Of a stretch of DNA of 23,088 nucleotides, positions 1-17,123 are shown piece after piece. Location: the IMG/VR virus record IMGVR_UViG_2563366797_000001. The stretch is one strand, 5' to 3'. The number at the start of each line of letters is the position of its first letter. The first letter of the stretch is position 1. This DNA comes from a virus. Taxonomy: Duplodnaviria > Heunggongvirae > Uroviricota > Caudoviricetes. The position numbers were made by a program, and so were the translations under genes. Under the pieces are notes generated by a model. That model made no database searches and was not told the DNA's origin. It saw nothing but the letters and a program-made list of their open reading frames with translations.

Positions 1-211
1 TTGAGAAGCGGTGTAAGTGAACTGCAGTTGCCATGTTTTACGGCAGTGAGAGCAGAGATAGCGCTGATGTCCGGCAGTGCTTTTGCCGTTACGCACCACC
101 CCGTCAGTAGCTGAACAGGAGGGACAGCTGATAGAAACAGAAGCCACTGGAGCACCTCAAAAACACCATCATACACTAAATCAGTAAGTTGGCAGCATCA
201 CCTATCACGGC

Positions 212-421
212 ATGCGAATTGAGCTTAAAGAACCAAATGGTAAAGCCCCGACGAAAGAGCAGATCGCCTGGATGCGCAGGCTTAGAGAGGAAGGTTACTA
301 CGTCGTTCTTGCGTATGGTGCAGAACAAGCGATAACCGCCATCCTGGAATACATAAGCCTTAAAAAGGGTGAGGCTATTGAGCATGTATTGAACGGCGAC
401 AAGTGGTTGTATGCTGCTTAA
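212..421 (+). CDS. VRR-NUC-like nuclease, C-terminal fragment (possible remnant)
   Basis: 69-aa ORF with ...YHGMRIELK...EQIAWMRRLREEGYYVV..., resembling the (D/E)xK C-terminal half of VRR-NUC domains. The same frame has a TAA at 185-187 and no upstream frame carries the expected N-terminal half, so it is probably truncated. Confidence 0.3.
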   Translation: MRIELKEPNGKAPTKEQIAWMRRLREEGYYVVLAYGAEQAITAILEYISLKKGEAIEHVLNGDKWLYAA

Positions 422-426
422 AATAA

Positions 427-443
427 TAAATTAATTAGTGCAT
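427..443 (-). promoter_or_regulatory. Degenerate C1 operator-like site (GCACTAAT core)
   Basis: Minus-strand reading ATGCACTAATTAATTTA; close to the Op99a-type variant at 18095-18111 but with about 3 mismatches to the ATTGCTCTAATAAATTT consensus. Confidence 0.3.
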
Positions 444-487
444 ATGTGCTCTTTGATATAGCGCACATTAACATCGGGAGAATAATC

Positions 488-643
488 GTGTCATTCAAGG
501 CTAATTATGAATCGCTGGCATCGATCATGCCGCGTAATGAACAGGAAGCAGATGCTGTAGTGGACCCGGTAATCGCTGAAATGAATGCTCGCCTGGAGGC
601 TGAATTTGCAGCTGAGAATGAACATACCACCCAGGGCGACTAG
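488..643 (+). CDS. Small hypothetical protein (GTG start)
   Basis: GTG at 488 preceded by GGGAG; about 51 aa in the frame of ORF 446..643. No recognisable motif. Confidence 0.2.
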   Translation: MSFKANYESLASIMPRNEQEADAVVDPVIAEMNARLEAEFAAENEHTTQGD

Positions 644-1247
644 GACTGTTTTTTGTGTCGGTAGCGGTCCGTCACTCACTCGTGAGGACTGTGCTGCTAT
701 AGAAAAAACTGGCTGTTCAATCATCGCGGTTAACAATTCCTGGCAGATGTTCGATGACATTTATGCCTTATACGCCGGTGATTTGTCATGGTGGAAGCAA
801 TACGGATCCACCATACCGGGAGGGAGATTCCGCAAAGTGACAGCCAACCTGGCGGCGGCGAAATCATTTTCGTTGGAGTACAGGCGATATTGTGGACCGG
901 CGGAAGGGGTAAATAGCGGCGCGCAGGCTATCAGTCTGGCTGCTGAATCAGGGGCTGAAGTAGTGGTATTAGTCGGCTATGACTGTTCTCTGCAAAACGG
1001 CCTTCATTGGCATGGCGCGCACCCTCAAGCCCTACGGAATCCAACGCAGGTGTCTATTTCAAAATGGCAACAGCAGTTCCTGGATACCCGCAAAAAACAC
1101 GCAGATTTACATATTTTGAATGCAAGTAGGAGCAGTGCAATTCAATGTTTCCCAAGAATAAATTTAGAGGCAGTGATCGCGTTATTATCGTCGGCAGTGG
1201 CCCAAGCGCCGCAAACTTTGTTGCGCCGCGCGGAGTGCCGATTATAG
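618..1247 (+). CDS. Sialyltransferase/Maf-like (GT42/DUF115-like) putative glycosyltransferase, paralog 1
   Basis: VFCVGSGPSL...IIAVNNS...NSGAQAISLAAESGAEVVVLVGYDCS...HWHG, matching the recalled Cst-II/Maf pattern (GNGPSL loop, second strand, SG...A...LG...L.G.D, catalytic His region). Start could be 585 or 618. Confidence 0.5.
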   Translation: MNIPPRATRTVFCVGSGPSLTREDCAAIEKTGCSIIAVNNSWQMFDDIYALYAGDLSWWKQYGSTIPGGRFRKVTANLAAAKSFSLEYRRYCGPAEGVNSGAQAISLAAESGAEVVVLVGYDCSLQNGLHWHGAHPQALRNPTQVSISKWQQQFLDTRKKHADLHILNASRSSAIQCFPRINLEAVIALLSSAVAQAPQTLLRRAECRL

Positions 1248-1771
1248 CGGTCAATGGGGCCATCGACTGGCTTAACCGCGCTTCTTATTTTTTCACCCTT
1301 GATCCATCGCCAGACAATATGCGGCGCGTTGGTCGTGGCCGCCGTCGCCGTGGTGTTTGTTATTGCATGGCACTACCCGATGTTAAAGAACGTGAAGTCA
1401 GAGATGGCGTTCTGTGCTTCCGTCGTGTGGCTGAGCGCGGCACGGAGCCAAAAAATACGAATTCTCCCGAGTGGTGGGCGTGGCGCTGGTCCGCACATTT
1501 CGGCCTTTGCGAAGATGAGAATGAAATTGCCAGCGGCAATAGTGCATATGGTGCTCTGAACCTGGCTTTCCATATCGGATTCAAACATGTCGCCCTGGTG
1601 GGCGTTGACGCTACACAAGAACCACGCGTTCACTCCGGCGGCACGCCAAAAAATCTAAGTCACCTGCCTTTGTTATTCCAGTCTGCGCGTGAACAGATTG
1701 ACGTTGTTTCATGCGGGAAAATGGGAGGTATTCCGCAGATGACTCTTAAAGAATGGCTGAAGAATACATGA
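1145..1771 (+). CDS. Sialyltransferase/Maf-like (GT42/DUF115-like) putative glycosyltransferase, paralog 2
   Basis: [13 protein letters not shown]...IIAVNGA...[28 protein letters not shown]...VHSGGTPKN; same motif order as paralog 1. AGGAG lies upstream of the ATG; overlaps the paralog 1 tail by about 100 nt. Confidence 0.5.
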
Positions 1772-2445
1772 TGGCACCCACAATTTATCACCGTATCGAC
1801 GGTACCAAATACAGGAATGTCTGGGTTGTTGGTGATCTGCATGGTTGCTACACCAGACTGATGTCCGAACTCCATCGTGTGGATTTTGACCCGGCGCAGG
1901 ATTTACTGATATCGGTCGGCGACCTTATCGATCGCGGTACTGAAAATGTCGAATGTCTGGAACTATTGCAGATGCCCTGGTTCAGGGCAGTGATGGGGAA
2001 CCATGAGCGGCTGATGATTGATGCGTTAAGTCCAGATGGCAACGTGAATAACTGGCTAATGAATGGCGGTCAATGGTTCTTCATGCTGGACGCTGATCAG
2101 GAAATATTAGCCAGGGCGCTGGTGGAGTTGGTAAGACGACTGCCCTATATCATTGAGTTGAACACCGGGCAAGAAACTATCGTTATAGCCCATGCCGACT
2201 ATCCGGATAATGAATATCAATTCGGTAAGGAGGTGCCGCTTTTCAACGTTGTCTGGGCGCGCGAGCGTATCAGTGATTCGATGGATGATATTGGTGGCGA
2301 AATTTCTGGCGCAGATCGTTTTATCTTTGGTCACACTCCGGTGAAAAGCCCGAAGACATTCTGGAATCAGCATTATATCGACACAGGTGCCGTATTTTGC
2401 GGAAACCTGACATTGATGAAAGTGAAAGGTGATGGTGCAGCATGA
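1768..2445 (+). CDS. Ser/Thr protein phosphatase, lambda PPase / PrpA-PrpB family (metallophosphoesterase)
   Basis: Near full-length match to recalled lambda phosphatase: [44 protein letters not shown] at 1768 overlaps the upstream stop (ATGA); 1753 is an alternative start. Confidence 0.85.
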
Positions 2446-3143
2446 AGATTGCTTTAGTTCTTCGCTCTGGTGGTGACTATAACGCTTCCGATGTGCAGTG
2501 GCTGGTTAATCAACTGCCAAAAGGCTATGAAATTATTTGCCTGACAGACCTGAAGCGTTTACATGTACCTGGCGTCAAAGTTGTCCCATTGATCAACCAG
2601 TGGCAAAAGTGCCGTGGCTGGTGGGCGAAAATCGAGTTGTTCCGACCGGATATAACCGATGATCTGTTCTATCTGGATTTGGACACGGTTATTGCCGGTG
2701 ATATACGCCCAATCCTAGAGAATCCACCAACCAGCTTCACCATGCTTAGGGATTTTTACCATCCACAATATCGTGGCAGCGGTGCCCTGTGGATACCAAA
2801 TAGTGTAAAAGCGCATATCTGGAGTGCATTCTGGCAAGATCCGGAAGGTTGGATTGCTCGTTGTGTTACTACTGAATGCTGGGGTGAGCAGGGGTTTTTG
2901 CGGAAGGTTATGGGTGATGATACACCAGCATTTCAGGATCTGTATCCGGGATGGTTTGTAAGTTACAAGGCCGATGTTGTGGAACCTGGTTCGAAATATG
3001 CGAGCGCGCGTTACTCCAGGGGGAATGGGGCATTACCAAAAGACTGCCGAATAATCTTTTTCCACGGCAAACCGCGACCTCGCGAAGTGTCAGAGGATTG
3101 GCTTCCCCTTATCAGCTCATTTTTTGAGCGAGAATCAGAATAA
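2442..3143 (+). CDS. GT-A fold (GT8-like) nucleotide-sugar glycosyltransferase
   Basis: N-terminal strand [12 protein letters not shown], DxD-type motif [14 protein letters not shown]-terminal FFHGKPRP resembling the GT8 H.G..KPW motif. ATGA start-stop overlap with the phosphatase gene. Confidence 0.5.
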
Positions 3144-3144
3144 T

Positions 3145-3161
3145 ATTGCTCTAATAATTCC
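3145..3161 (+). promoter_or_regulatory. C1 operator-like site
   Basis: ATTGCTCTAATAATTCC, two bases after the glycosyltransferase stop codon. Confidence 0.55.
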
Positions 3162-3169
3162 ATATTTTT

Positions 3170-3199
3170 AAAACGTGATGTACACTCATCACGTTTTTT
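3170..3199 (+). terminator. Intrinsic terminator hairpin (bidirectional-looking) between two inverted operator sites
   Basis: AAAACGTGATG-TACACT-CATCACGTTTT followed by T-run; preceded by T/A run on the other side. Confidence 0.55.
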
Positions 3200-3210
3200 A
3201 TTAGAGCAAT
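3194..3210 (-). promoter_or_regulatory. C1 operator-like site (inverted relative to 3145-3161)
   Basis: Minus-strand reading ATTGCTCTAATAAAAAA. Confidence 0.55.
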
Positions 3211-3224
3211 CTATAAGGTGCACT

Positions 3225-3443
3225 ATGTGGCCATTCCGACGGAAATATCACTACTGGCTGATCGCCTTTGTTACGCCGACCGGCGGTATCAGGCATGTCA
3301 TCACCAGGTATCGCAACAAGAGACTCACCTTAGCCAGAATTTTACAGGCTGCCATAGGTGAGGGACTGGATACAAATTGCGTAGTCCTTCCACCTTCATA
3401 CTTAGGAAAAATGACCGAAGCACAAGCTAATACGGAACTTTGA
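3225..3443 (+). CDS. Hypothetical protein (72 aa)
   Basis: ATG with AAGGTG about 7 nt upstream, directly after the operator site. No recognisable motif. Confidence 0.3.
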   Translation: MWPFRRKYHYWLIAFVTPTGGIRHVITRYRNKRLTLARILQAAIGEGLDTNCVVLPPSYLGKMTEAQANTEL

Positions 3444-3602
3444 AATGAGCACTTCAGCACAAAACCAATCAATCGAAAATGTATCTAGAGGAAACTGCGG
3501 CAAGAAGACTTCTCGATGTTTGCTATGCACGTAGCGATGCATGGGAAAAAGAGAACGGCGGCACTATTTACGTTCGCTGATAGTTACAGTGTCACTTTTA
3601 AT

Positions 3603-3633
3603 GCTGGTGGAGTGCTCCCACCAGCATTTTTTT
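3603..3633 (+). terminator. Rho-independent terminator
   Basis: GCTGGTGG-AGTGCTC-CCACCAGC followed by ATTTTTTT. Confidence 0.55.
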
Positions 3634-3652
3634 CGTCCAATGAGGAGGGCAT

Positions 3653-4159
3653 TTGAGTATTTTCAATAAACACGCACACCAGGAACGTCCGTACATCGTC
3701 ATAGTAGATATTGATGGGACGATATCAGAGGCAACGGAAGACAGGCTGCATTTACTTCCACCACCTGGCAAAGGTGCATTAACAGAGCACTGGAACGAGT
3801 TTAACCTTGCCTGTGACACTGATGCTCCCATCACTCCAGTTATTGATATGGTGCGCCAGTTGTCCGGCATTTACACCCTCTGGTTTGTAACCGGGCGCTG
3901 TGAGATAGCCAGGGATAAAACACGAGCCTGGTTGCGTAAGCACGTAACAAATGGGGCTGAGCCTTTGCTATCTATGCGTCCTGCCACCGATGACAGAAAT
4001 GACGGTCCAGCAAAGATTGATCTCCTGAAGAAAATTGGTCTAAGTAAAATTGCGTTCGCGCTGGAAGATAAGATTGAAGTGGCGCGTGTTTTCAGGAGTC
4101 ACGGCGTACTTACGTTAATGGTCAGGGAGTATGAAAACGCGCTTCTCCATCAACAATAA
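3653..4159 (+). CDS. HAD-superfamily phosphatase-like protein
   Basis: TTG start with strong GAGGAGGG Shine-Dalgarno. HAD motif I VIVDIDGTI (DxDGT), motif II LWFVTGR, acidic motif FALEDK. Confidence 0.5.
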   Translation: MSIFNKHAHQERPYIVIVDIDGTISEATEDRLHLLPPPGKGALTEHWNEFNLACDTDAPITPVIDMVRQLSGIYTLWFVTGRCEIARDKTRAWLRKHVTNGAEPLLSMRPATDDRNDGPAKIDLLKKIGLSKIAFALEDKIEVARVFRSHGVLTLMVREYENALLHQQ

Positions 4160-4175
4160 TTGCTCTAATAAATCT
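4159..4175 (+). promoter_or_regulatory. C1 operator site with promoter-like TTGATT immediately downstream
   Basis: ATTGCTCTAATAAATCT followed by CTTGATTTTT; the same operator-TTGATTTTT arrangement recurs at 18642. Confidence 0.6.
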
Positions 4176-4257
4176 TGATTTTTAAAACAGAGAAAGTGAA
4201 AATAAAAACATGCCGCAAGGCGCGGCATGTATCCAATCAATCACAGGAGCTGAAAAT

Positions 4258-4344
4258 ATGAACACGGCATTCAAAATCATTATGGCCGCGATCTATTTCT
4301 GGCTGTTCTCTATCACTTTTGGCAGCATTGTCGCGCATGGGTAA
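4258..4344 (+). CDS. Small hydrophobic peptide (28 aa), possible membrane peptide or toxin-like
   Basis: MNTAFKIIMAAIYFWLFSITFGSIVAHG; AGGAG 8 nt upstream; downstream of the 4159 operator and a hairpin (4210-4231). Too short for the ORF track. Confidence 0.3.
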   Translation: MNTAFKIIMAAIYFWLFSITFGSIVAHG

Positions 4345-4423
4345 GGGGAGTATATTAGCCATTTGGAACCCCACGGTCTCTTGCGGGTTTAATTAAGAAC
4401 CCGCAAGAAAAATACGAATTGGG

Positions 4424-7400
4424 CTATATTTTTCCGCCTACGCCTTTAAACTTCTCAATAAACGAGACGATTTTCTGGAAAACTGCCTGTTTTTTCGTTT
4501 TATATTGCGGATTCAACGGACTAAGTTTTGGTAATGTTTCGTTTAATTCTGTGCCATTTTCGGTGGCGTATTCGCGTTTTAAAGACGTGCGAATATAGCG
4601 TTTTGCTGCATCTTCATTGAGATTTTCTTCTTTTATCAATGCTTCTGCTTCACGTTGCTGTTCGCGTTGAGCAAACGTAAAGAATGCCTCAATGATACTG
4701 GCTTTGTCTGGTAAATCATCCAGGTTCGTTTGCTGAATAAAATCGACCACCAGGCCCTCTTTCGCCCGGTTCCCCAGGCTTGAACGAATTAAGCGTTTGA
4801 CCTCTTCGATCATTTCGCCCTTGCCTTTATTTTGTCTATTGTGTTCGAAAATCAGTCCAAGGATATAATCCAGGTTTATTTCCTGAGACTTCAGCAAATC
4901 GACCTCAAAAACTACGTCATCCCAGTCAGTGGTTGATTTCTCTTTTTTCTCAGCTTCTTTCTCACGGCGCTGCCAGTCGCGAATATCGTTATAGGCAGAA
5001 CGATAATCCTGAATCTTGCGATCAGCAGGGAGACGAATTGTTTGCAATTCAGCGAACTTTTCATTATCCACATAATGTTCTGCTTTGAATTTTTCTACCG
5101 CAACAGGATCGCTAAGATCGATTTGTTGCAGGGCTTTTAGCGTGGCAAATTCATCATAGTTTTGCAGGATGTTCTCGGCACGCAGGTATTCGCCAAACAG
5201 TTTAACGAAGTCTTTCTTCTCTTTTTCACTTTCAATACTGGTAGGGTCAGGGAACCGTTGTTCCAGTTCTGAAACTACTGTCATGAAGCCGCGTTTAGCT
5301 TCACCAGTGGCAGCATCAGTAAAGCCTTCCATATACTCTGCATAACTCTTTTCTAAAACCACATTTTTGGTATTTTTGTCACCAAACAGCGTTATGGCAT
5401 CAATGGTTGAGCGTTCCAGATCCCGGAACGTGACAATATTACCGAAGGTTTTAGTCGCGTCATAAATGCGGTTGGTGCGGGAGAATGCCTGCATCAGGCC
5501 GTGAAAACGCAAGTTTTTATCGACGAATAGCGTGTTTAATGTTGGAGCATCGAAGCCGGTTAAAAACATCCCCACGACAATTAGCAGATCGATATCCTGA
5601 TTTTTAACCCGCTGGGCTAAATCACGATAGTAGTTCTGAAAACCGTTACTGTCGGTGCTAAAGTTAGTTTTAAAATGGCTGTTATATTCACGAATTGCAG
5701 CGTCCAGAAACTCTTTAGCACTGCTGTCCATTGCGCTGGTATCAAAAGTTTCATCGGAAATTTCACCAATGGCATTTTGTTCTTCATTGGCGGCAAAGGA
5801 GAAGATTGTCGCAATACGCAGCGGTTTATAGGTAGCCGATTTATTAGCGGCTTCTTCTTGTAACCGTTTAAACGTCGCATAATAGGCTTTCGCGGCATCC
5901 ACGCTGCTCACTGCCAACATAGCATTAAAACCTTTTGAGCCAGGGAAGGTACGGTGGGTTTTCTGGCGGAAATTATTCAGAATATATTGCGTGATTTCCT
6001 GAATACGCATGGGATGAAGAAACGCCTGCTGATTTTCAGCCGCACTCAGTTTTTTCTCGTCAGTTTCTGTCTCTAAAGACTTAAACTGTGGCCGCACATC
6101 GTTGTAGTCCACCTTGAATTTGAGCACTTTTTCGTCACGAATCGCATCGGTAATTACATACGAATGCAATTCACGACCAAATACGCTGGCGGTTGTTTCT
6201 GAGCCTAAGGCGTTTTCCGGGAAAATAGGGGTGCCGGTAAAACCAAACTGATAATAGCGTTTGAATTTCTTCTTCAGGTTTTTCTGCGCTTCTCCAAACT
6301 GGCTGCGGTGGCATTCATCAAATATAAACACCACTTGCTGATTATATACAGGCAGATCGCTTTCTGCTTTCATCAGGTTATTGAGTTTCTGAATAGTAGT
6401 GACGATAATTTTGTTATCGTCCTTATCCAGATTTCGTTTAAGACCTGCGGTATTTTCCGAGCCGTTGACGCTGTCTGGCGAAAAACGCTGATATTCCTTC
6501 ATGGTCTGGTAATCGAGGTCTTTCCTGTCGACCACAAAGAAGACTTTATCAATAAAGTCCAGCTCTGTTGCCAGACGCGCGGCTTTAAAGCTGGTGAGGG
6601 TTTTACCAGAACCGGTAGTGTGCCAGATATACCCACCGCTTTCCGGTTTTGACCAGTTCTTCGCTGTAAAGGAACTCTTAATTTTCCACAGAATGCGCTC
6701 GGTGGCGGCAATCTGGTACGGTCGCATTACCAGTAGTGTCTGACTGCTGTCAAAAACGCTGTAGTTCACCAGAACATTAAGCAGAGTATGTTTCTGGAAA
6801 AAGGTAGCGGTAAAGTCTTTGAGGTCTTTAATCAGTGTATTGTCTGATTTAGCCCAGTTCATGGTGAAGTCAAAACTGTTTTTATCGCGCTTTGTGGTGT
6901 TGGCAAAATAACGGGTATCAGTGCCGTTGGAAATGACGAACAGCTGCAGATACTTAAACAGGGAATTTTCGCTGTTAAAACTCTCTTTACTGTAACGATG
7001 TATCTGGTTGAAAGCCTCACGAATCGCCACCCCGCGTTTTTTTAGTTCGATTTGCACCAGCGGTAAACCATTAACCAGGATCGTGACGTCATAACGGTTA
7101 GCATGAGAACCCGTCTGTTCAAACTGCTGGATAATCTGCACCTTATTGCGCATGAGATTCTTTTTATCTATCAAATAGATGTTCTCAAGACGCTCGTCAT
7201 CAAAAATAAAGTCGCAAATATAGTCGATATGGATTTTACGGGTCTTATCCAGAATGCCATCGCTCGGGTTATCCAGATACTGCTCCGTGAAACGCCGCCA
7301 CTCGCTGTCATTAAACACCACACCATTGAGGTTCTGAAGCTGTTCCCGAACATTGGCTAGCATCGCCGACTGTGATTTTACGGATATAAATTCATAGCCC

Positions 7401-7540
7401 TGATTCCGCAGGTCCTGAATCAGTTCACGTTCCAGGTCCGATTCGCTCTGGTAGCTGTCGCCTGTTTGCTCAGCTTTGATGTACTTATCAAGGACGATAA
7501 AGTTATTGGATTCAGCAATGGTGTGTGTTTGATGAGTCAT
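4424..7540 (-). CDS. hsdR: Type I restriction enzyme R subunit (HsdR)
   Basis: 1038 aa; Walker [18 protein letters not shown]-box-like [11 protein letters not shown], helicase motifs; last gene of the M-S-R operon. Confidence 0.95.
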
Positions 7541-7661
7541 AGCGCATCCTTTGTGCCGTCTGGCAAGGGCCGGAAGGGAGTTAAGGGCGACTTCCGGCGT
7601 GTAGAAAATAGTCTATATACTGACCGGATGTTAAGGTGGTCCGGTCTGTAAAAATGCTCAA

Positions 7662-8288
7662 TTAATTACTGGCTGTTTCAGGTTTTGGGAAACTGAACAG
7701 TAAATCACGATAGTACTCGTATTGTTTCTGGCGCAACTCGATTTCACGCGGGAGACCTTCGGTGATGGAGTTGGTCAGTGTGTCGAATTTGTCCAGAATT
7801 CGCACGATTTCAGACTGGATGGCAAGGGATTTTTCCGGATTATCCGGGCAGGGGATTGGGATTTTTTTTTGAGAATAATTACTAATCCATTGGCGTTTAT
7901 GGTCTCCCTCTGCGAATTCACTTGGTAATGTATTGAGCCAATAGTAAACATATTTCAGTAAGGTTTTATTATCATCACATGATGTAACCATTTTCATGGC
8001 CGATGATTTTGCCTTAAAGTCAAAATCCACCCATTTATTAGCGGTGGTGAAATCATCAAAAATTATTACAGGTGCCTTTGATGCCTGATAAATACCATGA
8101 GTCTCATTTGTGTATCCAAGAATAAATGTTTTTCCGGCAGTAAGAACCGGTATGGTATATGTGTCGTGATAATCTTTTGCTTTTACCAAATACTTTGTTG
8201 GCTGTTCATATTTGGTTATTTCCCCCAATGGCAACCACTCAACTTCAACCCCATCCAGCAATTTTTCCAGATAACTCATCTCGCTCAT
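7662..8288 (-). CDS. hsdS: Type I specificity subunit (HsdS), short single-TRD form
   Basis: 208 aa; start overlaps the hsdM stop by 4 nt (coupling); position between hsdM and hsdR; length is consistent with one target-recognition domain plus a conserved region. Confidence 0.8.
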
Positions 8289-9847
8289 TTCTGCACCTCG
8301 CAGCCTTCAATTTCAGCCACAATCGCATCAATATCTTTGCGCAACTGGTCGATTTTGCTGACCGTGGTTTTCAGCTCAGCATTCAGCTCACCGATATCGA
8401 TAATTTCGCGAGTATCTTTCGCTTCAACATAACTGCTCACCGACAGGTTATAGTCATTCGCGACAACAGTCTCAAACGCAACAGATTTCGCCAGATGGGC
8501 AACATCTTCCTTGCCGGCAAATACCTGCATAATCTGTTCGATATGGGCATCGGTCAGGATATTGTTGTTAGTCTCTTTTTTGAACAATTCGCTGGCATCA
8601 ATAAACTGAACTTTGGTATCCGTTTTATGTTTAGACAGCACCAGAATATTGACGGCAATGGTGGTGCCAAAGAACAGGTTCGGTGCCAGTGAAATCACGG
8701 TTTCGACATAGTTATTGTCGACCAGATATTGACGGATTTTCTGCTCTGCGCCGCCACGGTAAAAAATACCCGGGAAGCAGACAATCGCAGCACGACCTTT
8801 GGCCGAAAGATAGTTCAGCGCATGTAGTACAAACGCAAAGTCAGCTTTGGATTTGGGGGCCAGGACGCCAGCCGGGGCAAAACGTTCATCGTTAATCAGC
8901 GTCGGGTCATCGCTGCCAATCCATTTCACCGAATACGGCGGGTTAGAAACGATGGCATCAAACGGTTTTTCATCTCTGAAGTGTGGCTCAGTCAGTGTAT
9001 TACCCAGCTTGATATCAAACTTGTCGTAGTTGATGTTGTGCAAAAACATGTTCATACGTGCCAGGTTATAGGTTGTATGGTTGATTTCCTGACCAAAAAA
9101 GCCTTCTTCGATGATATGGTTATCAAACTGCTTTTTAGCCTGCAACAACAGTGAGCCGGAACCCGCTGCCGGGTCGTAGATTTTGTTAACGTTGGTCTGC
9201 CCGTGCATAGCCAGTTGTGCAATCAGCTTGGAGACGTGCTGCGGTGTAAAGAACTCACCGCCTGACTTACCGGCATTTGCCGCATAGTTAGAAATCAGGA
9301 ACTCATAGGCATCACCGAACAGGTCAATCTGATGTTCGTTGAAGTCACCAAGTTTTAACCCTTCAACCCCTTTCAGAACCGCAGCCAGGCGGGCATTTTT
9401 ATCTTTAACGGTGTTACCCAGGCGGTTACTGGTGGTATCGAAATCAGCAAACAAACCTTTGATGTCTGCTTCTGAAGGGTAGCCGTAAGCAGAACTTTCG
9501 ATAGCAACGAAGATGCTGTTTAAATCTGCGTTCAGTCTGTCATTGGTATTTGCTTTCGCAGCTACGTTGCAGAAAAGCTGACTTGGGTAGATGAAGTAGC
9601 CTTTGGTTTTGATGGCATCGTCTTTAATGTCATCAGTAATTACGCTGTCATCCAGTTTCGCATAACAGATGCTGTCATCACCGGCTTCAATATAGCTGGA
9701 AAAATTTTCGCTGATAAAACGGTAGAAAAGCGCGCCCAGAACGTATTGCTTAAAATCCCATCCATCGACCGAACCTCTGACATCGTTAGCAATTTGCCAG
9801 ATTTGACGATGAAGCTCTGCACGTTGTTGAATACTTGTCATTTTCAT
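8285..9847 (-). CDS. hsdM: Type I N6-adenine DNA methyltransferase (HsdM)
   Basis: 520 aa; NPPY motif ([11 protein letters not shown]), AdoMet-binding region ([10 protein letters not shown]), typical HsdM N-terminus. Confidence 0.95.
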
Positions 9848-9986
9848 CCACTTATTTCAGGCTTATGTAATTGGCGGTGATTCTACAGCAACTTGGATGC
9901 TTTAGCAGTTCGGACATTAGGCTACGAATGACCTGCCTAGAGGTTTGTTAAGCCGCAAAGTGCTGGTGCTTTATGTCTGTGAAGTT

Positions 9987-10017
9987 TATAATTGTGTACA
10001 CATAACGAGTACACGAG
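9987..10017 (+). promoter_or_regulatory. phd-doc promoter/operator region
   Basis: TATAAT at 9987-9992 followed by perfect palindrome TGTGTACACA (9993-10002) and GAGTACACGAG directly upstream of the phd ATG. Confidence 0.55.
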
Positions 10018-10023
10018 GTATTT

Positions 10024-10245
10024 ATGCAATCCATTAACTTCCGTACCGCGCGGGGCAACCTTTCTGAAGTGCTCAACAATGTTGAGGCCGGGGAAGAGGT
10101 TGAAATCACCCGCAGAGGCCGTGAGCCAGCAGTAATTGTCAGCAAGGCTACTTTTGAAGCCTACAAAAAAGCGGCGCTGGATGCTGAATTTGCATCCCTG
10201 TTTGACACCCTGGACTCCACCAACAAGGAACTGGTTAACCGATAA
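10024..10245 (+). CDS. phd: Phd antitoxin
   Basis: 73 aa, [39 protein letters not shown]..., matches recalled P1 Phd; stop overlaps the doc start. Confidence 0.95.
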
Positions 10246-10625
10246 TGAGGCATATATCACCGGAAGAACTTATTGCGCTTCATGATGCGAATATAAACCG
10301 CTACGGCGGCCTGCCGGGAATGTCTGATCCGGGTAGGGCAGAGGCCATTATCGGGAGAGTTCAGGCCAGAGTTGCCTACGAAGAGATCACCGACCTTTTC
10401 GAAGTCTCCGCCACCTACCTGGTGGCTACGGCGAGAGGGCATATATTCAATGATGCCAATAAGCGTACCGCGCTAAACAGTGCGCTGCTATTTCTACGCC
10501 GTAACGGGGTGCAGGTATTTGATTCACCTGAACTGGCAGACCTTACTGTAGGCGCTGCGACTGGCGAGATATCTGTATCTTCTGTCGCCGACACGTTACG
10601 TAGATTGTATGGTTCTGCGGAGTAG
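10245..10625 (+). CDS. doc: Doc toxin (Fic-fold kinase)
   Basis: 126 aa, [17 protein letters not shown]...[23 protein letters not shown], matches recalled P1 Doc. Confidence 0.95.
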
Positions 10626-10629
10626 ATTA

Positions 10630-10809
10630 ATGGCACGTAAATACAACAAATTGTCCCGTGAAGCGTTAAAGATGCTTCTTGATGGCGTGAGTCGCCGCGA
10701 GGTAAAGCAATACCTGGCTGGTAAGCAAATTGGTGCCAGGACCGCTATTGCTGTGTTATGCCGTCAGGAAATGGTTGTGCTTAAACAGAGAATGCCGGGC
10801 AGCATATAA
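10630..10809 (+). CDS. Small post-doc protein (PdcA-position), hypothetical
   Basis: ATG 5 nt after the doc stop with GGAG upstream; 59 aa MARKYNKLSREALKMLLDGVSRREVKQYLAG. Confidence 0.4.
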   Translation: MARKYNKLSREALKMLLDGVSRREVKQYLAGKQIGARTAIAVLCRQEMVVLKQRMPGSI

Positions 10810-10836
10810 AGCCCAATCAGTGATTAAAGGTGTGAT

Positions 10837-11880
10837 GTGAAAGCCGTAATTACTCCCTTTGTACAGAAAGAACTTGGCCTCGCCACGTTCAAAGTGGATC
10901 AGGAGGTCAGAAAGCTGGTGGAGGCTGGCCGTAAATTTATTATGGAGCCGGTGCCGCGTGAGTTAATCGAGCACATGGACGACGGCCTCGTTGCTTCCGA
11001 GCAAACTATAGCAACAAATGAGGCGTTGCAGCCGTTTTTTAACAGCGATGAACTGTTTCGCCGTATTGGTGGAATTGACGCGCTGGTGGCGTGGTTGCGC
11101 AGGAAAGAGGGGCAATGCCAGGCCGCAGATCGTAGCTGGTGTGACAACCATATTGTCCACGCTGAACGAGACAATAGCGCGGTGTTGTTGTGCTGGCATC
11201 ACGATAACCATTACCGGATGCGTGGTTTTAATGAGCTGAAAGAAACGCTGCACAATAATCGCGTTAACTGGATACTGGATGTCGCCCGTCAGGAAATGGG
11301 CCTTTCAGATAGCCATGATTTAAGTATTCAGGAGCTGTGCTGGTGGGCTTTCATGCGTAACATGATGCACCTGATGCCGGAAGAAGTCTGCCGCATATCA
11401 ATAAATAAGATGAAGGCTGCTCCGCAGGATAGCGGACCTCTGAAAGAGGCGGATATTCGCCCGTATGACGATCGCGCTACAGCATATGTTCAGATGATGG
11501 AAGAACGCGCCGCGCCGATGCGTGCAAAAGTATGCCCTGTGGATGTTGACTCCGACCCAGGTATGGCGCATTTCAAAATACCAAAACTTCAATCGCTAAA
11601 ATTGCCCGAGTACATGGACTTTGTGGCTTCCCGTCCATGCTGTGGCTGTGGAGCTGCGGGAGCTGGCGCTCACATTACGCCTTATATCGTTCGTCATAGT
11701 CGATTATGCGCGCATGACATTTACGCAATTCCTCTGTGCCAGTCATGCCAGCGTGATATTGAGCGTGACCGCGATAATTGGGAGAAGACGCACGGTAGGC
11801 TGGCGATGCATCAACGATTGTTCTTTGATTACGCGCTTGGAGTCGGCGCTATCACAAGTTACTCGTCGAGCGTTAGATAA
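10837..11880 (+). CDS. Hypothetical Cys-rich protein (PdcB-position)
   Basis: 347 aa, GTG start with AAGGTG upstream; C-terminal cysteine cluster (CCGCGAAG...CAHD...CQSCQRD) suggests metal binding. Family not recognised. Confidence 0.5.
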
Positions 11881-11881
11881 A

Positions 11882-11898
11882 ATTGCTCTAATGTATTG
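11882..11898 (+). promoter_or_regulatory. C1 operator site upstream of the lpa-position gene
   Basis: ATTGCTCTAATGTATTG, directly after the stop of the preceding gene. Confidence 0.6.
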
Positions 11899-11968
11899 CT
11901 ATTTCTTTAATCGATGGTATTATATTCCACGTTGATTAGTTGACATGGGCTAATCAGTAGGTGACAGG

Positions 11969-12283
11969 ATGTTACTTAACTGGCAGGGACGCCACTTCAT
12001 GGAAATAAATCACTCACGAATAACATCGTACGAGATTGCGAATTACATGATCCGCACTAAATCTCTTCTATCAGCGAAAGAACTCGCAGCAATTCTTGAA
12101 AAGGAATACCCGCATCTGGATGTCGATAAGCGCGATGTTTATCTGCGCTTAAAAGCTATCGCTGTGTCTAAGTATTCGTCTGTTTTGATTGATGACAGTA
12201 CGAACGAAAGCGTGAAAATAACTGGTCAGTGCTGGAAGCAGCTGAATTCATCGAGGCGCATGGCGGGAAAGTGCCGCCCCTGA
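11969..12283 (+). CDS. Possible late-promoter-activator (Lpa-position) protein
   Basis: 104-aa ORF downstream of a C1 operator; assignment by position only. Confidence 0.3.
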
Positions 12284-12600
12284 TGCTGGAGCAAATCAAA
12301 GCCGATCTGCGTGCTCCTAAGACCAATACCGATGATGAGGAAAGGCAAACAGCCGTCGGTGGCCCTTCTCTTGAAGATCTGGACAAAGTTGCGCGAGAAC
12401 GGGCCGCCAACCGCCGCGCCGATGCCGCATTGTGGATTGAGCAGCGTAGGGAAGAAATCGCCGATATCGTTGATACAGGCGGTTATGGAGATGTTGATAC
12501 TGAAGGTGTATCAAACGACCCATGGCTGGAACAAGACCTGGACGAAGACGAGGAGGAAGACGAAGAAGTTACCCGCAAGCTATACGGGGATGATGATTAA
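12229..12600 (+). CDS. pacA: PacA-like terminase small-subunit C-terminal remnant
   Basis: 123 aa from GTG, acidic C-terminus ([11 protein letters not shown]); stop overlaps the pacB ATG (TAATG). Frame closed upstream at 12193. Far shorter than the recalled ~45-kDa P1 PacA. Confidence 0.4.
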
Positions 12601-12989
12601 TGGCCAGAAGTTGCGTAACGGATCCACGTTGGCGCGAGCTGGTGGCGCTATATCGTTATGACTGGATTGCGGCCGCTGATGTTTTGTTCGGCAAAACACC
12701 TACCTGGCAGCAGGATCTGATTATTGAGTCTGTGCAGGAACAGGGTAGCAAGACATCTGTTTCGTCTGGTCACGGTACCGGGAAATCAGACATGACTTCT
12801 ATCATGATCATGTTGTTCATAATCATGTATCCCGGTGCCCGCGCCATTATCGTTGCGAACAAAATTCAGCAGGTAATGACCGGTATATTCAAGTACATCA
12901 AGATAAACTGGGCTACTGCCACCAGCCGTTTTCCATGGCTTGCTGATTATTTTGTTCTGACAGAAACCGCTTTCTATGAGGTTACTGGT
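12600..12989 (+). pseudogene. pacB: pacB (terminase large subunit), N-terminal part, interrupted by IS2
   Basis: Walker [10 protein letters not shown]; reading frame runs into the IS2 end at 12990 and resumes in frame at 14326. Confidence 0.8.
12985..12989. repeat. IS2 target-site duplication, left copy (CTGGT)
   Basis: CTGGT immediately outside the IS2 terminus; identical copy at 14321-14325. Confidence 0.85.
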
Positions 12990-13000
12990 TGGATTTGCCC

Positions 13001-13906
13001 CTATATTTCCAGACACCTGTTATCACTTAACCCATTACTGGCTTGCTGCCGTAGATATTCCCGTGGCGAGCGATAACCCAGTGCACTATGCGGATGCCAT
13101 TCGTTATAATGCTCGAACGCCTCTGCAAGGTTCTTTGCTGCCGTTAACCCGTCTGGTTTGGGCATGACACTGATGTAGTCACGCTTTATCGTTTTCACGA
13201 AGCTCTCTGCTATGCCGTTACTCTCCGGACTCCGCACCGCCGTGCTCTTCGGTTCAAGCCCCAACATCCGGGCAAACTGCCGTGTTTCATTAGCCCGGTA
13301 GCATGAACCATTATCCGTCAGCCACTCTACTGGAGACGCCGGAAGCTCGTTGCCGAAGCGGCGTTCCACCGCTCCCAGCATGACGTCCTGTACTGTTTCA
13401 CTGTTGAAGCCGCCCGTAGTGACCGCCCAGTGCAGTGCCTCACGGTCACAGCAGTCCAGCGCGAACGTGACTCGCAGTTTTTCTCCGTTATCACAGCGGA
13501 ACTCGAACCCGTCAGAGCACCATCGCTGATTACTTTCTTTCACAGCCACTCTGCCTGTATGTGCCCGTTTCGATGGCGGTACAGCAGGTTTTCGCTCAAG
13601 CAACAGCGCATTCTGGCGCATGATCCGGTAAACACGTTTGGCATTGATCGCAGGCATACCATCAAGTTCTGCCTGTCTGCGAAGCAGCGCCCATACCCGA
13701 CGATAACCATACGTGGGCAGCTCTCCGATAACATGGTGTATACGGAGAAGCACATCCGTATCATCAGTGTGACGACTGCGGCGGCCATCCATCCAGTCAT
13801 CGGTTCGTCTGAGAATGACGTGCAACTGCGCACGCGACACCCGGAGACAACGGCTGACTAAGCTTACTCCCCATCCCCGGGCAATAAGGGCGCGTGCGCT
13901 ATCCAC
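13001..13906 (-). CDS. insD: IS2 transposase OrfB (InsD)
   Basis: 301 aa, DDE integrase-type sequence (...WCSDGFEF...LTDNGSCY...). Confidence 0.9.
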
Positions 13907-14229
13907 TTTTTTGCCCGTCCATATTCAACGGCTTCTTTGAGGAGTTCATTTTCCATCGTTTTCTTGCCGAGCAGGCGCTGGAGTTCTTTAATCTGCTTCA
14001 TGGCGGCAGCAAGTTCAGAGGCAGGAACAACCTGTTCTCCGGCGGCGACAGCAGTAAGACTTCCTTCCTGGTATTGCTTACGCCAGAGAAATAACTGGCT
14101 GGCTGCTACACCATGTTGCCGGGCAACGAGGGAGACCGTCATCCCCGGTTCAAAACTCTGCTGAACAATTGCGATCTTTTCCTGTGTGGTACGCCGTCTG
14201 CGTTTCTCCGGTCCTAAGACATCAATCAT
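13864..14229 (-). CDS. insC: IS2 OrfA (InsC)
   Basis: [41 protein letters not shown]...; helix-turn-helix N-terminus; start taken at MIDVL (121 aa). Confidence 0.9.
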
Positions 14230-14320
14230 CTGCTCTCCAATGACTAGTCTAAAAACTAGTATTAAGACTATCACTTAAATAAGTGATACTGGTTGTCTGG
14301 AGATTCAGGGGGCCAGTCTA

Positions 14321-14325
14321 CTGGT
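14321..14325. repeat. IS2 target-site duplication, right copy (CTGGT)
   Basis: Identical to 12985-12989. Confidence 0.85.
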
Positions 14326-15420
14326 AAAGGTGTATGGACTGTAGTACCGAAGGGCTTTCGTCTGGGAAGTGAAGAAGTTCTCGCCGGTGAACACGCAGAT
14401 CATCTTCTGTATATTATCGATGAAGCCTCCGGTGTCAGTGATAGAGCTTTCGGTATCATCACCGGTGCTCTTACCGGACAGGATAACCGCATCTTATTAC
14501 TGTCACAGCCTACACGCCCAAGCGGCTATTTCTACGATACTCACCATAAACTGGCCAAGCGTCCTGGTAACCCAGATGGCGTTTATACGGCGATCACGCT
14601 TAACAGTGAGGAATCACCGCTGGTAACGTCAGAATTTATCAAAATGAAGCTGGCGGAGTACGGCGGGCGTGATAACCCTATGTACATGATTAAGGTACGC
14701 GGCCTATTCCCTAAATTACAGGACGGCTTCCTTCTTGGACGTGATGAGGTTGAACGTGCGACGCGGCGGAAAGTCAAGATTGCCAAAGGATGGGGCTGGC
14801 TTGCATGTGTGGACGTTGCTGGTGGTACAGGACGGGATAAGTCCTTTATCAATATCATGATGGTGTCCGGCCAGCGAAATAAACGCCGTGTAATCAACTA
14901 TCGAATGCTGGAATACACAGACGTTACAGAAACGCAGCTTGCCGCCAAAATTTTCGCAGAATGTAATCCTGAGCGATTCCCCAATATCACCATAGCGATA
15001 GACGGCGATGGCCTGGGTAAAGCAACGGCGGATCTGATGTACGAGTATTATGGTATTACCGTACAGCGTATACGCTGGGGTAAAAAGATGCATAGCCGTG
15101 AAGATAAGAGCCTGTACTTTGATAAACGTGCTTATGCCAACGTTCAAGCCGCAGAGGCCGTAAAATCTGGTCGTATGAGACTGGATAAGGGTAATGAAAC
15201 TATTGAGGAAGCGTCGAAAATCCCTGTAGGGATTAACTCCGCAGGTCAATGGAAGGTGATGAGTAAGGAGGATATGAAGAAAAAACTCAACCTGCACTCA
15301 CCAGACCATTGGGATACATATTGTTTCGCTATGCTGGCGGATTATGTTCCCCAGGACGAAGTGCTTAGCGTCGAAGACGAAGCGCAGGTTGATGAAGCTC
15401 TGGCATGGCTTAATGAATAA
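14326..15420 (+). pseudogene. pacB: pacB (terminase large subunit), C-terminal part
   Basis: 365 codons in frame with the N-terminal fragment once IS2 and one duplication copy are removed; reconstructed length about 495 aa. Confidence 0.8.
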
Positions 15421-15423
15421 ACA

Positions 15424-15440
15424 CTTGCTCTAATAAATTG
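15424..15440 (+). promoter_or_regulatory. C1 operator-like site heading the antirepressor module
   Basis: CTTGCTCTAATAAATTG, followed by TTGACT and a possible -10. Confidence 0.55.
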
Positions 15441-15572
15441 TGTTTTTTGACTGCCGATGTTACATTGAACCTGACCTCTTGCGCCTTGAGGCATTTTCGG
15501 TTTATGCTTATCAGGCACCTCATTAAAACGGGTGCCGGGATTGAGACCCCGGATAATGTCAAAGGCGACACA

Positions 15573-15594
15573 GACGCCGAAAGCGTCTTTTTTT
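15573..15594 (+). terminator. Intrinsic terminator-like hairpin inside the antirepressor leader
   Basis: GACGC-CGAAA-GCGTC followed by T7; flanked by complementary GACACA/TGTGTC. Confidence 0.5.
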
Positions 15595-15779
15595 GTGTCA
15601 TGCCATCGCACAGCCATACGTAGCGTTTAGCTCCGAAATCAATGGTAGTGCTGGCTGGGCTGCCGAAAGGCAGGCCGGTTCCCTTTGACGCCGGTAGTCT
15701 CAACCCAGTCAGTGCTACCGCCATTGAGATTGAGACCTCACGCGGTAGCTCCTTAACTTAGTCAAAGGAGGCTGCCATT

Positions 15780-16001
15780 ATGGCTACTGTCCCTACCCCA
15801 ATTCATCCTGAATTTATCTGGCGCTTTTACTCCTGCCAAAAACGTCACTATCACTTCGTTATTGCACCGACAGAAGATGAGGCCCATTCTCAGCTTCCTG
15901 ACGCCCCATGTATTTTCTCTGCCCGTTTTTCCACTGATTCACGCAATTCTCTCAGTTACTGGTGCCTCCCTGTTAACGCTTCTGCTCAGGAGGGACTATG
16001 A
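15780..16001 (+). CDS. Small protein translationally coupled to the antirepressor gene (Icd-like position)
   Basis: 73 aa; strong AAGGAGG Shine-Dalgarno; stop overlaps the downstream ATG (ATGA). Confidence 0.4.
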   Translation: MATVPTPIHPEFIWRFYSCQKRHYHFVIAPTEDEAHSQLPDAPCIFSARFSTDSRNSLSYWCLPVNASAQEGL

Positions 16002-17116
16002 GAACGTCATTAGTTACCCGTGAAGAGATGATCGAGGCAATTGAACAGCACACTGCCTGTATCAGTACTAGGGATATACCGGGCGTTATTGCCAACTACT
16101 TCATGATCACCAAACAACTTTACCGGAGAAAGGACAAGAACGCAGTTCACCGCATCCTGCTGTCTGATATCCGCGAATACCTGCTCGAACAGGGGCATCT
16201 GAATTACGCAACCGCCGCAGCCGAATCACGCAAGGAGGCACACAGAATGAAAGCAACTAACGTTAAATCAGAAAAAATTCATGCACCTTCAGTTCAGGAA
16301 TCGGAGCTGGTGGTTGTTCAGAATCAGTCTGATGAAATTCCCGTTCTGGAATGGCAGGGAGTGCGTGTAGTGACAACCGAGACTCTTGCTAGAGGGTATG
16401 GGACAGAAACAATCCGTATTCGCCAAAATCATCATGAGAACAAAGTACGCTTTGTTGAAGGGAAGCACTTTTTCAAAGTTGAAGGAGAATCATTGCGCGA
16501 GTTGAAGCACAGAGTAGCTTTAAACTACTCTGTAAAAATTGCTCGCAATGTTCGCTCACTCACCCTCTGGACAGAACGCGGCGCAGCCCGCCACGCTAAA
16601 ATGCTCGAAACCGATCAGGCATGGGCATTCTTTGAAAAACTGGAAGACAGCTACTTCCGACAAAAAGAACAGCAACCGATCGCAATCCCCCAGACGCTTC
16701 CTGAAGCCCTACGCCTGGCTGCCGAACTGGCTGAACAAAAGCAACTTCTGGAACAGAAAGCCCACCAGCTAAATCAGCAGCTGGTGGCCGCCGCTCCTAA
16801 AGTCGATTTTGCCGACCGGGTATCAGTAGCTAAAGGGATCCTGATTGGGAATTTTGCAAAGGTTGTTGGACTTAAGCAAAACGCGCTGTTTGTCTGGTTA
16901 CGGGAGAACGGCATCCTGATAGCGTCCGGTGGACGTAAAAATGTGCCGTTCCAGCAGTACATCAACGCGGGGTATTTCACGGTGAAAGAAGTGGTGCTGG
17001 ATGATGAAGATGGCTACCAGATACGGTTGACGCCTCAATTAACGGGTAAAGGCCAGCAGTGGTTGACGCGTAAACTGCTCGATGCTGGCTTGTTAAAACC
17101 GGTGGCGGCTGAATAA
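15998..17116 (+). CDS. Antirepressor-like protein (N-terminal ORF6N domain, C-terminal KilAC/Ant domain)
   Basis: 372 aa; N-terminal ...WQGVRVVTTETLARGYGTETIRIRQNHHENKVRFVEGKHFF... (ORF6N pattern), C-terminal ...FVWLRENGILI...YINAGYF... (Ant C-terminal pattern); convergent with c1. Confidence 0.7.
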   Translation: MRTSLVTREEMIEAIEQHTACISTRDIPGVIANYFMITKQLYRRKDKNAVHRILLSDIREYLLEQGHLNYATAAAESRKEAHRMKATNVKSEKIHAPSVQESELVVVQNQSDEIPVLEWQGVRVVTTETLARGYGTETIRIRQNHHENKVRFVEGKHFFKVEGESLRELKHRVALNYSVKIARNVRSLTLWTERGAARHAKMLETDQAWAFFEKLEDSYFRQKEQQPIAIPQTLPEALRLAAELAEQKQLLEQKAHQLNQQLVAAAPKVDFADRVSVAKGILIGNFAKVVGLKQNALFVWLRENGILIASGGRKNVPFQQYINAGYFTVKEVVLDDEDGYQIRLTPQLTGKGQQWLTRKLLDAGLLKPVAAE

Positions 17117-17123
17117 TGGAAGA

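Follow-up and report, generated by a model that had tools for sequence, protein, structure and literature searches.

The P1-like replicon analysed here (the window, a stretch of 23,088 bp) was found to carry a Type IC restriction-modification cassette at a position where reference P1 has other genes, and the specificity gene of this cassette is about half the size expected. Taken together, the data make it probable that an intact Type IC cassette occupies a variable slot of the P1 backbone and that its collapsed hsdS gene directs the synthesis of a homodimeric enzyme with a palindromic target. Gene identities, the structure of the deletion, the insertion junctions and the recurrence of the allele in the population were observed directly. 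Both the half-size arrangement and the insertion site are already known, and the finding is real but ordinary.

The cassette and its place in the P1 backbone

The features of the region are as follows.
3653-4175, plus strand: pap with the C1 operator Op88/OpmgT (4159-4175); Pfam HAD_PNKP, P1 annotation mapped by alignment
4349-9947: hsd cassette, not in reference P1, in place of P1 nt 84483-87969 (pmgT to humD)
4424-7540, minus strand: hsdR, restriction/translocase subunit, 1038 aa; Pfam HSDR_N, SWI2_SNF2, ResIII, T1R_D3-like and EcoR124_C
7541-7661, minus strand: hsdS-hsdR spacer, 121 bp, with two hairpins and a weak promoter-like match
7662-8288, minus strand: hsdS, half-size specificity subunit, 208 aa, one Methylase_S domain
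8285-9847, minus strand: hsdM, N6-adenine methyltransferase subunit, 520 aa; Pfam N6_Mtase and HsdM_N
9848-9947, minus strand: cassette-specific region, presumed hsdMS promoter region, upstream of hsdM and divergent from Pphd; boundary set by blastn
10024-10245, plus strand: phd, Pfam PhdYeFM_antitox; P1 backbone, right flank
10245-10625, plus strand: doc, Pfam Fic; P1 backbone addiction module, adjoining the hsdM side

Open reading frame calling placed hsdM, hsdS and hsdR contiguously on the minus strand, within the coordinates given by an earlier sequence-only reading of this DNA, and the complete Type I operon proposed there was borne out by the open reading frames, their Pfam domains and the 4-nt overlap (ATGA) between hsdM and hsdS. 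HsdM (N6_Mtase, E-value 9.8e-121) shares 515 of its 520 residues (99.0%) with the EcoR124II M subunit (PDB 7bst_D), and a motif search found its catalytic motifs intact, with DPAAGSG at 225 (AdoMet) and NPPY at 302; the RefSeq start gives a protein of 518 aa, from 9841. HsdR aligns with EcoR124 HsdR (2w00_A) from 1-1038 to 1-1038 (2295 bits), and GSGKT at 310 (Walker A), DECH at 408 (DEAD box) and ELK at 165 (D..ELK) are intact. The gene order, deduced from the open reading frames and Pfam, is that required of family IC, and on sequence grounds the operon is an intact EcoR124-family (Type IC) cassette. Its placement in family IC (EcoR124 / EcoDXXI / EcoprrI) is made through HsdM and HsdR by sequence relatedness to the prototypes, the Type I families themselves being defined by complementation and hybridisation. 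HsdS appears as an architectural variant, as the 208-aa protein has one recognition domain and no TAEL region, in place of the two domains and central TAEL region by which the family is recognised.

The junctions of the cassette were located by blastn. On the left, window positions 3486-4348 correspond to P1 83620-84482, ending just before pmgT, and on the right, positions 9948-12198 match P1 from 87970 onward, just after humD. The left flank retains the operator Op88/OpmgT (ATTGCTCTAATAAATCT), and its PpmgT promoters now point at the 3'-end of hsdR, while the phd-doc module in the right flank is 98% identical to that of P1. The Type III res/mod genes of reference P1 adjoin cre/mat, away from the slot between pap and phd-doc. 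The sequence-only reading had stated that canonical P1 carries its Type III system elsewhere and has no Type I system beside phd-doc, and this was correct: pmgT-humD, not the same operon, stands at this position in P1. Its further suggestion of a lineage-specific defence insertion held in that the cassette is absent from reference P1; the insertion is not new, the GenBank record of P1 marking the same junctions as matching the EcoDXXI / R124/3 hsd flanks (Tyndall et al. 1997). Judged by these junctions, the pap / phd-doc interval is a known variable slot of P1-like phage-plasmids that the cassette occupies. The Type IC hsd loci with P1 flanks described earlier (Tyndall, Lehnherr, Sandmeier, Kulik & Bickle 1997; Lobocka et al. 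annotation) have identical P1 junctions; they lie on a conjugative plasmid or the chromosome, whereas the window represents a P1-like replicon, and otherwise there is no material difference. At the same locus of phage phi456, an IS5-family element interrupts hsdS; the extra genes seen there between hsdM and hsdS were considered as a novel insert and rejected, as they are this element.

A one-domain HsdS and its likely origin

In the 208-aa HsdS, Pfam detected a single Methylase_S domain (2.6e-9). Residues 1-168 are 100% identical to the N-terminal 'GAA' recognition domain of EcoR124 (7bst_A residues 1-168), and residues ~160-208 correspond, nearly identically, to the C-terminal conserved helix (D2; 7bst_A 355-404), the central TAEL region and the second domain being absent. 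Comparison with 7bst_A and with a 411-aa relative showed that a complete recognition domain, the coiled-coil helix and the N-terminal conserved segment are all present. The protein, which had been described from the sequence as about half the length of a two-domain subunit, is a genuine one-domain subunit with both termini intact. Half-size natural relatives occur elsewhere, including a marine alphaproteobacterial locus with hsdM, an hsdS of ~200 aa and hsdR in a row, and 205-aa HsdS homologues named from Acinetobacter and Prevotella.

The 411-aa relative is encoded by plasmid p1585m1_C, whose HsdM and HsdR are identical to those of the window (same WP ids, zero amino acid differences). Its HsdS contains the GAA domain twice, in the order domain, central TAEL helix, domain, C-terminal helix, and the two domain copies share a 419-bp block of perfect identity. 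The hsdS gene of the window differs from it by one clean 609-bp in-frame deletion and is otherwise identical; its variants are of the copy-1 type 5' of nt 45 and of the copy-2 type 3' of nt 463, the pattern expected from one crossover. A parent allele of 411 aa with the EcoR124 'GAA' domain in duplicate would thus have undergone one homologous crossover within the 419-bp shared block, with loss of 609 bp, and the product, still in frame, would consist of the N-terminus, the GAA domain and the C-terminal helix. As its source is a gene with two copies of one domain, the half-size hsdS would be secondary rather than ancestral, and parsimony favours collapse over build-up as the direction of change. 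Truncation by a nonsense mutation, which the sequence-only reading had named as grounds for abandoning its interpretation, or by a frameshift was ruled out by the single in-frame deletion relative to the 411-aa gene, which is recombinational.

The exact 208-aa HsdS was found in 114 assembly blocks of public assemblies, and in all ten of the places listed its gene is flanked by hsdM (518 aa) and hsdR (1038 aa). A Type IC hsdS-region query finds matches in about one quarter of complete E. coli genomes, many of them in the chromosome, and the half-size form was present in 5 of the 1,334 matching complete genomes, in each case on a complete plasmid. The same 208-aa allele occurs in three genomic contexts and in cassettes with hsdM and hsdR 1-4% diverged. 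Codon differences between two half-size lineages comprise 13 that are synonymous and 2 that are not, and the alleles vary at hsdS nt 45, carrying either the copy-1 or the copy-2 variant. One of the five plasmids, the complete circular plasmid A of E. coli H15, is 100% identical to the cassette over 5,599 bp. The whole window was considered as a copy of this plasmid and the identification was rejected, the 100% identity being limited to the cassette; window positions 1-18288 are 100% identical to draft scaffold KB732932.1 of GCA_000351865.1.

This apparent draft origin bears on whether the short gene was produced by assembly, the true gene having 411 aa and two identical domains that short reads collapsed. 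A perfect repeat of 419 bp, as in p1585m1_C, exceeds many short reads, so tandem-repeat collapse could occur in such a scaffold, and the exact 411-aa protein was absent from a large protein collection in which the 208-aa form stands on 60 contigs. We nevertheless regard an assembly origin as highly improbable. The check for a sequencing-derived truncation that had been proposed with the sequence-only reading came out in favour of a real gene, with the identical cassette in the complete H15 plasmid A and the half-size form in four further complete plasmids. The alternative variants at nt 45 are those expected from distinct real crossover points, and S genes of half size occur naturally at other loci, such as the marine one. 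From these comparisons, the short hsdS does not appear to be a local artefact.

Predicted target and activity

Two 208-aa HsdS subunits would associate by an antiparallel coiled coil of their C-terminal helices, the dimer with two HsdM would form a methyltransferase directed at an interrupted palindrome (GAAN7TTC being the most likely), and this enzyme would recruit HsdR for the cutting of unmodified DNA. The prediction follows from the engineered half-S subunits of the EcoR124 family, which dimerise and are active. EcoR124I(delta50) and EcoR124I-NT have the same GAA domain in a subunit of ~210 aa, dimerise, methylate and restrict, and recognise GAAN7TTC (Taylor 2010, 2012: PMC2877798, PMC3320862); the account in the Loenen 2014 review likewise gives EcoR124I(delta50) as an engineered half-subunit active at GAAN7TTC (Abadjieva 1993). 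These proteins are engineered from parent residues 1-215 and use the central helix D1, whereas the HsdS of the window is natural and uses D2. That D2 can pair with itself is indicated by EcoDXXI-deltaN, in which the C-terminal domain and the D2 helix are enough for a homodimeric, palindrome-specific enzyme recognising GAAYN5RTTC (MacWilliams & Bickle 1996, as related in the Loenen 2014 review), although its domain (GAAY) differs from that of the window (GAA). By analogy with both, the combination of N-terminal domain and D2 helix would be active. These published experiments on Type IC half-subunits lend support to the homodimeric S subunit and symmetric target that the sequence-only reading had predicted.

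NgoAV also has a naturally truncated Type IC HsdS, and in the 2014 review it was the only natural Type I system with a palindromic target then known. Its truncation came about through fragmentation of the gene, with dead C-terminal open reading frames remaining, whereas the clean crossover in the window left no debris. EcoR124I and EcoR124II resemble the window in gene order, in HsdM (515/520), in a full-length HsdR and in P1-derived flanks, but their HsdS has 404 aa with the TAEL region and a second domain (RTCG). As the HsdS of the window lacks both, a palindrome rather than GAAN6RTCG is to be expected. GAAN7TTC is thus the likely target by analogy, dimerisation, activity and spacer length being inferred, and since the helix is no simple guide to spacer length (Bower et al. 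2018), N7 could be N6 or N8. The window, at 23 kb, is uninformative on this point, GAAN7TTC (9 sites against 7.6 expected) and GAAN8TTC (6 against 7.5) being neither depleted nor enriched. Neither GAAN7TTC nor GAAN8TTC was found as a reported methylome motif in a literature search.

The collapsed gene could instead be an inactive remnant in a plasmid that neither restricts nor modifies, with the operon heading to decay. The hsdS gene is after all a secondary deletion product, half-size alleles are rare, phi456 has lost hsdS continuity to an insertion at the same locus, and the carrier element is itself decaying: it has acquired an IS3-family insertion, and its lpa and terminase genes are truncated. 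Yet the deletion preserves the reading frame exactly and retains everything that the engineered active half-subunits need, hsdM and hsdR have their full length in each of the ten contexts inspected, the differences between half-size lineages are mostly synonymous (13 against 2), and the allele has reached diverged cassettes and three genomic contexts, so that we consider loss of function unlikely. It is very unlikely, in our estimate, that the half-subunit heterodimerises with a second half- or full-size Type IC S subunit from the host to give an asymmetric target with no palindrome. When co-expressed, the N-terminal and C-terminal halves of EcoDXXI HsdS do restore the wild-type asymmetric specificity (Loenen 2014 review), and many E. 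coli chromosomes have loci matching the hsdS-region query; but a second Methylase_S-like open reading frame was not found in the window, H15 plasmid A has only one matching place, a co-resident full-length S subunit has both helices already paired internally, and homodimers would still form.

The homodimeric reading provides a clean natural E. coli example of a one-domain Type IC specificity subunit whose parental allele is available; such subunits are so far known mainly from engineered mutants and NgoAV. The allele being present in more than 100 public assemblies, the predicted GAAN7TTC motif could account for orphan m6A palindromes in methylomes of E. coli, and the predicted methylation would affect the ease of DNA transfer into strains with these P1-like plasmids. 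The cassette also illustrates that P1-like elements exchange defence genes at their pap / phd-doc slot. The importance is modest and no new mechanism is revealed. More speculatively, domain duplication and collapse in phage-plasmid Type IC hsdS genes might be a recurrent natural route that changes or simplifies specificity, from GAAN8TTC for the 411-aa GAA-GAA form (three TAEL repeats) to GAAN7TTC for the collapsed one. The collapsed allele would move from one diverged cassette to another through homologous exchange across the conserved hsdM/hsdR flanks, and a free half-subunit might pair with other half-subunits to yield extra specificities.

The hsdS-hsdR spacer

Inverted repeats had been noted in a gap of ~120 bp before hsdR, with the suggestion that a second promoter may lie there. 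Two were found in the 121-bp spacer, at 7618-7628/7640-7650 and 7569-7576/7591-7598, and its RNA fold has z = -3.96. The promoter suggestion found no support beyond a match of 9/12 to the consensus (TTAACA-N18-TATTTT, 7634..7605), and an hsdR promoter in the spacer is unproven. Over a 5.9-kb scan such matches were no commoner than in shuffled sequence, and this one is not conserved in the Klebsiella, Erwinia and Serratia spacers, the region being deleted in a Klebsiella phage. An Rfam scan of the cassette gave a sole match, to GcvB, sub-threshold and outside the spacer. Work by Kulik and Bickle in 1996 is said to have assigned EcoR124 hsdR a promoter of its own. In most non-enteric relatives hsdR is coupled directly to the upstream gene. 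Both hairpins are conserved in position, with differing stem sequences, in loci of Klebsiella, Enterobacter, Erwinia and Serratia, as seen when each sequence was folded separately in register with a conserved motif.

The hsd operon and its S subunit

The sequence-only reading described a complete Type I restriction-modification operon with a half-size HsdS, and all of its features were recovered in place by ORF calls, Pfam and an inverted-repeat search:

8285-9847, minus strand: hsdM, 520 aa; Pfam N6_Mtase and HsdM_N
7662-8288, minus strand: hsdS, 208 aa; one Pfam Methylase_S domain
7541-7661: hsdS-hsdR spacer, 121 bp, with two inverted repeats
4424-7540, minus strand: hsdR, 1038 aa; Pfam HSDR_N, SWI2_SNF2/ResIII, T1R_D3-like and EcoR124_C
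10024-10625, plus strand: phd and doc

The hsdM and hsdS genes share a 4-nt overlap (ATGA). Five of the 520 HsdM residues depart from the EcoR124II M chain (PDB 7bst), EcoR124 HsdR (2w00) aligned over residues 1-1038 with residues 1-1038 of the window HsdR (2295 bits), and a motif search found the nuclease, ATPase and methyltransferase motifs with none missing. Over residues 1-168, the N-terminal GAA-reading recognition domain, HsdS matches the same residues of EcoR124 HsdS with 100% identity, and its 43-residue tail matched the C-terminal conserved helix of the latter (residues 355-404), whereas neither the TAEL-repeat central conserved region nor a second domain (RTCG) is present. Judged by sequence, the system is EcoR124 except for the S subunit. 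The earlier interpretation was backed overall, though the operon itself is ordinary and the concept of a half-size Type IC S subunit is already established; what is added here is the identity of the duplicated parental allele, the mode of its collapse, the wide spread and apparent maintenance of the product, and its likely target.

Origin and predicted target of the half-size hsdS

The HsdR and HsdM of plasmid p1585m1_C (NZ_CP086387.1) share RefSeq protein ids with those of the window, with zero amino-acid differences. Its HsdS is 411 aa long and consists of a GAA domain, a central helix with three TAEL repeats, a second GAA domain and the C-terminal helix. The two domain copies contain a perfectly identical 419-bp block (nt 45-463 of each copy). 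Apart from a missing 609 bp, the 5.6-kb window cassette differs from p1585m1_C at only 4 positions, and variants in its hsdS are of the copy-1 type 5' of the block and of the copy-2 type 3' of it, a pattern accounted for exactly by a single crossover between direct repeats. One homologous exchange in a parent of the 411-aa type would therefore generate the window gene. As the product is in frame and retains the normal N- and C-terminus, truncation by a nonsense or frameshift mutation was ruled out. The comparison of alleles shows a clean deletion, a collapse mediated by the repeat. The GAA domain is found at the N-terminal position in EcoR124 HsdS and at the C-terminal position in the 429-aa homologue P0133, and HsdS proteins with this domain in both positions have two or three TAEL repeats; the building blocks of the collapsed gene circulate in the population.

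EcoR124I(delta50), which has the GAA domain of the window protein and the central helix, was reported to dimerise, methylate and restrict at GAAN7TTC, as was the engineered EcoR124I-NT (S residues 1-215) of the same composition. In both, the GAA domain is on the central helix, whereas in the window HsdS it is on the C-terminal helix. EcoDXXI-deltaN comprises a C-terminal domain and C-terminal helix and recognizes GAAYN5RTTC (7 bp between the methylated adenines, counted from published sequences), indicating that this helix is able to self-pair. NgoAV, a Type IC system, is reported to have a naturally truncated S subunit and a palindromic target. From these half-subunits and the fusion of GAA domain and C-terminal helix, the window HsdS is predicted to pair into an (HsdS)2(HsdM)2 methyltransferase specific for GAAN7TTC, the likely target, and recruitment of HsdR would then permit restriction. 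A spacer of N6 or N8 is also possible, since Bower et al. 2018 described a staphylococcal half-subunit with an unexpected spacer and helix length is not a simple determinant of it. By TAEL count, a 411-aa parent with three repeats should recognize GAAN8TTC and a two-repeat version GAAN7TTC, so that, according to the parent, the collapse may have shifted the spacer by one base or left specificity unchanged.

Insertion site and distribution of the cassette

The cassette (window 4349-9947) stands in place of P1 nt 84483-87969, which include pmgT, pmgU, pmgV, upfM-O, hot, lxr and humD. In the P1 GenBank record, both flanks are annotated as 96-98% identical to the DNA that borders the EcoDXXI and R124/3 hsd loci downstream and upstream, a match published by Tyndall et al. 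1997 (Mol Microbiol 23:729). Knowledge of the insertion site dates from that paper, and the lineage-specific defence insertion proposed earlier holds relative to P1 but not as a novelty. The accompanying statement that P1 carries a Type III system elsewhere was correct, as the EcoPI res/mod genes are near cre and mat. Among 24 matching phage records, the whole operon was beside phd-doc in only three P1-like or related phages (phi456, vB_EcoM-673R5 and a Klebsiella phage), hsdM and hsdS were matched in phage SJ1, and most others matched at the phd-doc flank only, with humD annotated alongside. In phi456 (L001 6033-7400), hsdS is split by an IS5-family element 99.6% identical to that at the window end, its transposase wrongly annotated as 'putative baseplate hub protein'.

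Directly after pap, the window keeps operator Op88/OpmgT of the P1 C1 repressor together with the PpmgT promoters (4159-4203). These promoters are convergent with hsdR and face its 3' end, so that derepression of the prophage could drive antisense transcription toward hsdR; a strong terminator-like hairpin (4208-4230) lies between. A small hydrophobic 28-aa ORF, MNTAFKIIMAAIYFWLFSITFGSIVAHG (4259-4345, plus strand), is in the P1-derived leader immediately ahead of the cassette junction and overlaps phi456 'Orf75' (L001 1511-1645, window 4210-4344).

Draft scaffold KB732932.1 (GCA_000351865.1) is 100% identical to window 1-18288, and the complete, circular plasmid A of E. coli H15 carries the cassette with 100% identity over 5,599 bp. 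Five complete E. coli plasmids had a half-size GAA hsdS (of 1,334 complete genomes matching an hsdS-region query). The exact 208-aa protein was on 60 contigs in one collection and in 114 assembly blocks indexed in another, with hsdM (518 aa) and hsdR (1038 aa) on either side in all 10 places inspected. Three gene contexts were seen:

Window: doc-phd / hsdM-hsdS-hsdR / pap
Plasmid locus L094: hot and humD kept between phd and hsdM
Locus L093: metG-mrp-humD-hot-hsdMSR-IS66, P1 hot and humD remnants accompanying the cassette

In L093 and L094 (8343-13865), hsdS and the spacer are 0-1 nt from the window, while hsdM and hsdR differ by 44-58 and 31-46 nt; the allele was thus either exchanged between diverged cassettes or regenerated more than once. 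The mosaic points to hsdS allelic exchange between diverged Type IC cassettes. At hsdS nt 45, the window has the copy-1 base, and L094 and L007, of a second half-size lineage (protein P0122, on 31 contigs), have the copy-2 base, placing their crossover point differently; this single nucleotide is a hint of more than one collapse. Between the two lineages there are 13 synonymous and 2 non-synonymous codon differences. The half-size allele, which is widespread, is apparently maintained.

The window element is probably a defective, plasmid-locked P1 derivative, because lpa (late-gene activator) and a terminase gene are truncated (~11999-14229) with an IS3-family insertion (transposase 13001-14229), whereas lpa, pacA and pacB are intact in related plasmids such as L094. 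An ISKpn26-like IS5-family element at the window end (22047-23088), 94% identical to the IS5 of P1 and inverted, interrupts mat at the position that corresponds to P1 nt 3331, just before the position of the Type III res/mod genes in P1. In the related H15 plasmid A, a Tn3-family transposase truncates ref, and IS26, other IS elements and a locus for heat resistance follow.

The hsdS-hsdR spacer and more distant relatives

The spacer had been proposed to contain inverted repeats and perhaps a second promoter. RNA folding gave a hairpin at each repeat (7569-7598 and 7618-7650, minus strand) and a better fold for the spacer than for shuffled controls (z = -3.96). The same two positions are occupied by hairpins in Klebsiella, Enterobacter, Erwinia and Serratia Type IC loci, with different stem sequences; some stems are altered on both sides and, on the sense strand of hsdR, still pair by G-U wobble. 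Stems that differ yet pair suggest elements acting in the RNA: for hsdMS, they might serve as a 3' stabiliser or an attenuator, and for hsdR as a structured 5'-UTR. Neither hairpin matched Rfam.

The EcoR124 hsdR has its own promoter. In the window spacer the only promoter-like match was TTAACA-N18-TATTTT (7634..7605, 9/12), and the scan yielded no excess of such matches over shuffled sequence. The match is not conserved in other genera, the region is deleted in the Klebsiella phage, and hsdR overlaps or abuts the upstream gene in most non-enteric relatives. The repeats fold and are conserved in position, and the second promoter is unproven.

HsdR relatives from 76 to 91% identical over the first 300 residues extend from Acinetobacter to Planctomycetes (genome_contigs loci L016-L091, viewed ~1,200 nt upstream of hsdR). 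In most of the loci, hsdS and hsdR are separated by an extra gene, which often overlaps hsdR by 4-8 nt; the products include PrrC-like AAA_13 proteins, Fic/DOC-HTH proteins and RhuM, none of them present in the window. A marine Thalassospiraceae MAG (L073 784-1395) has a half-size hsdS of ~200 aa with a TAEL-like repeat, in the order hsdM, hsdS, hsdR with a 105-nt spacer, and this family thus has natural half-size S subunits outside E. coli plasmids too.
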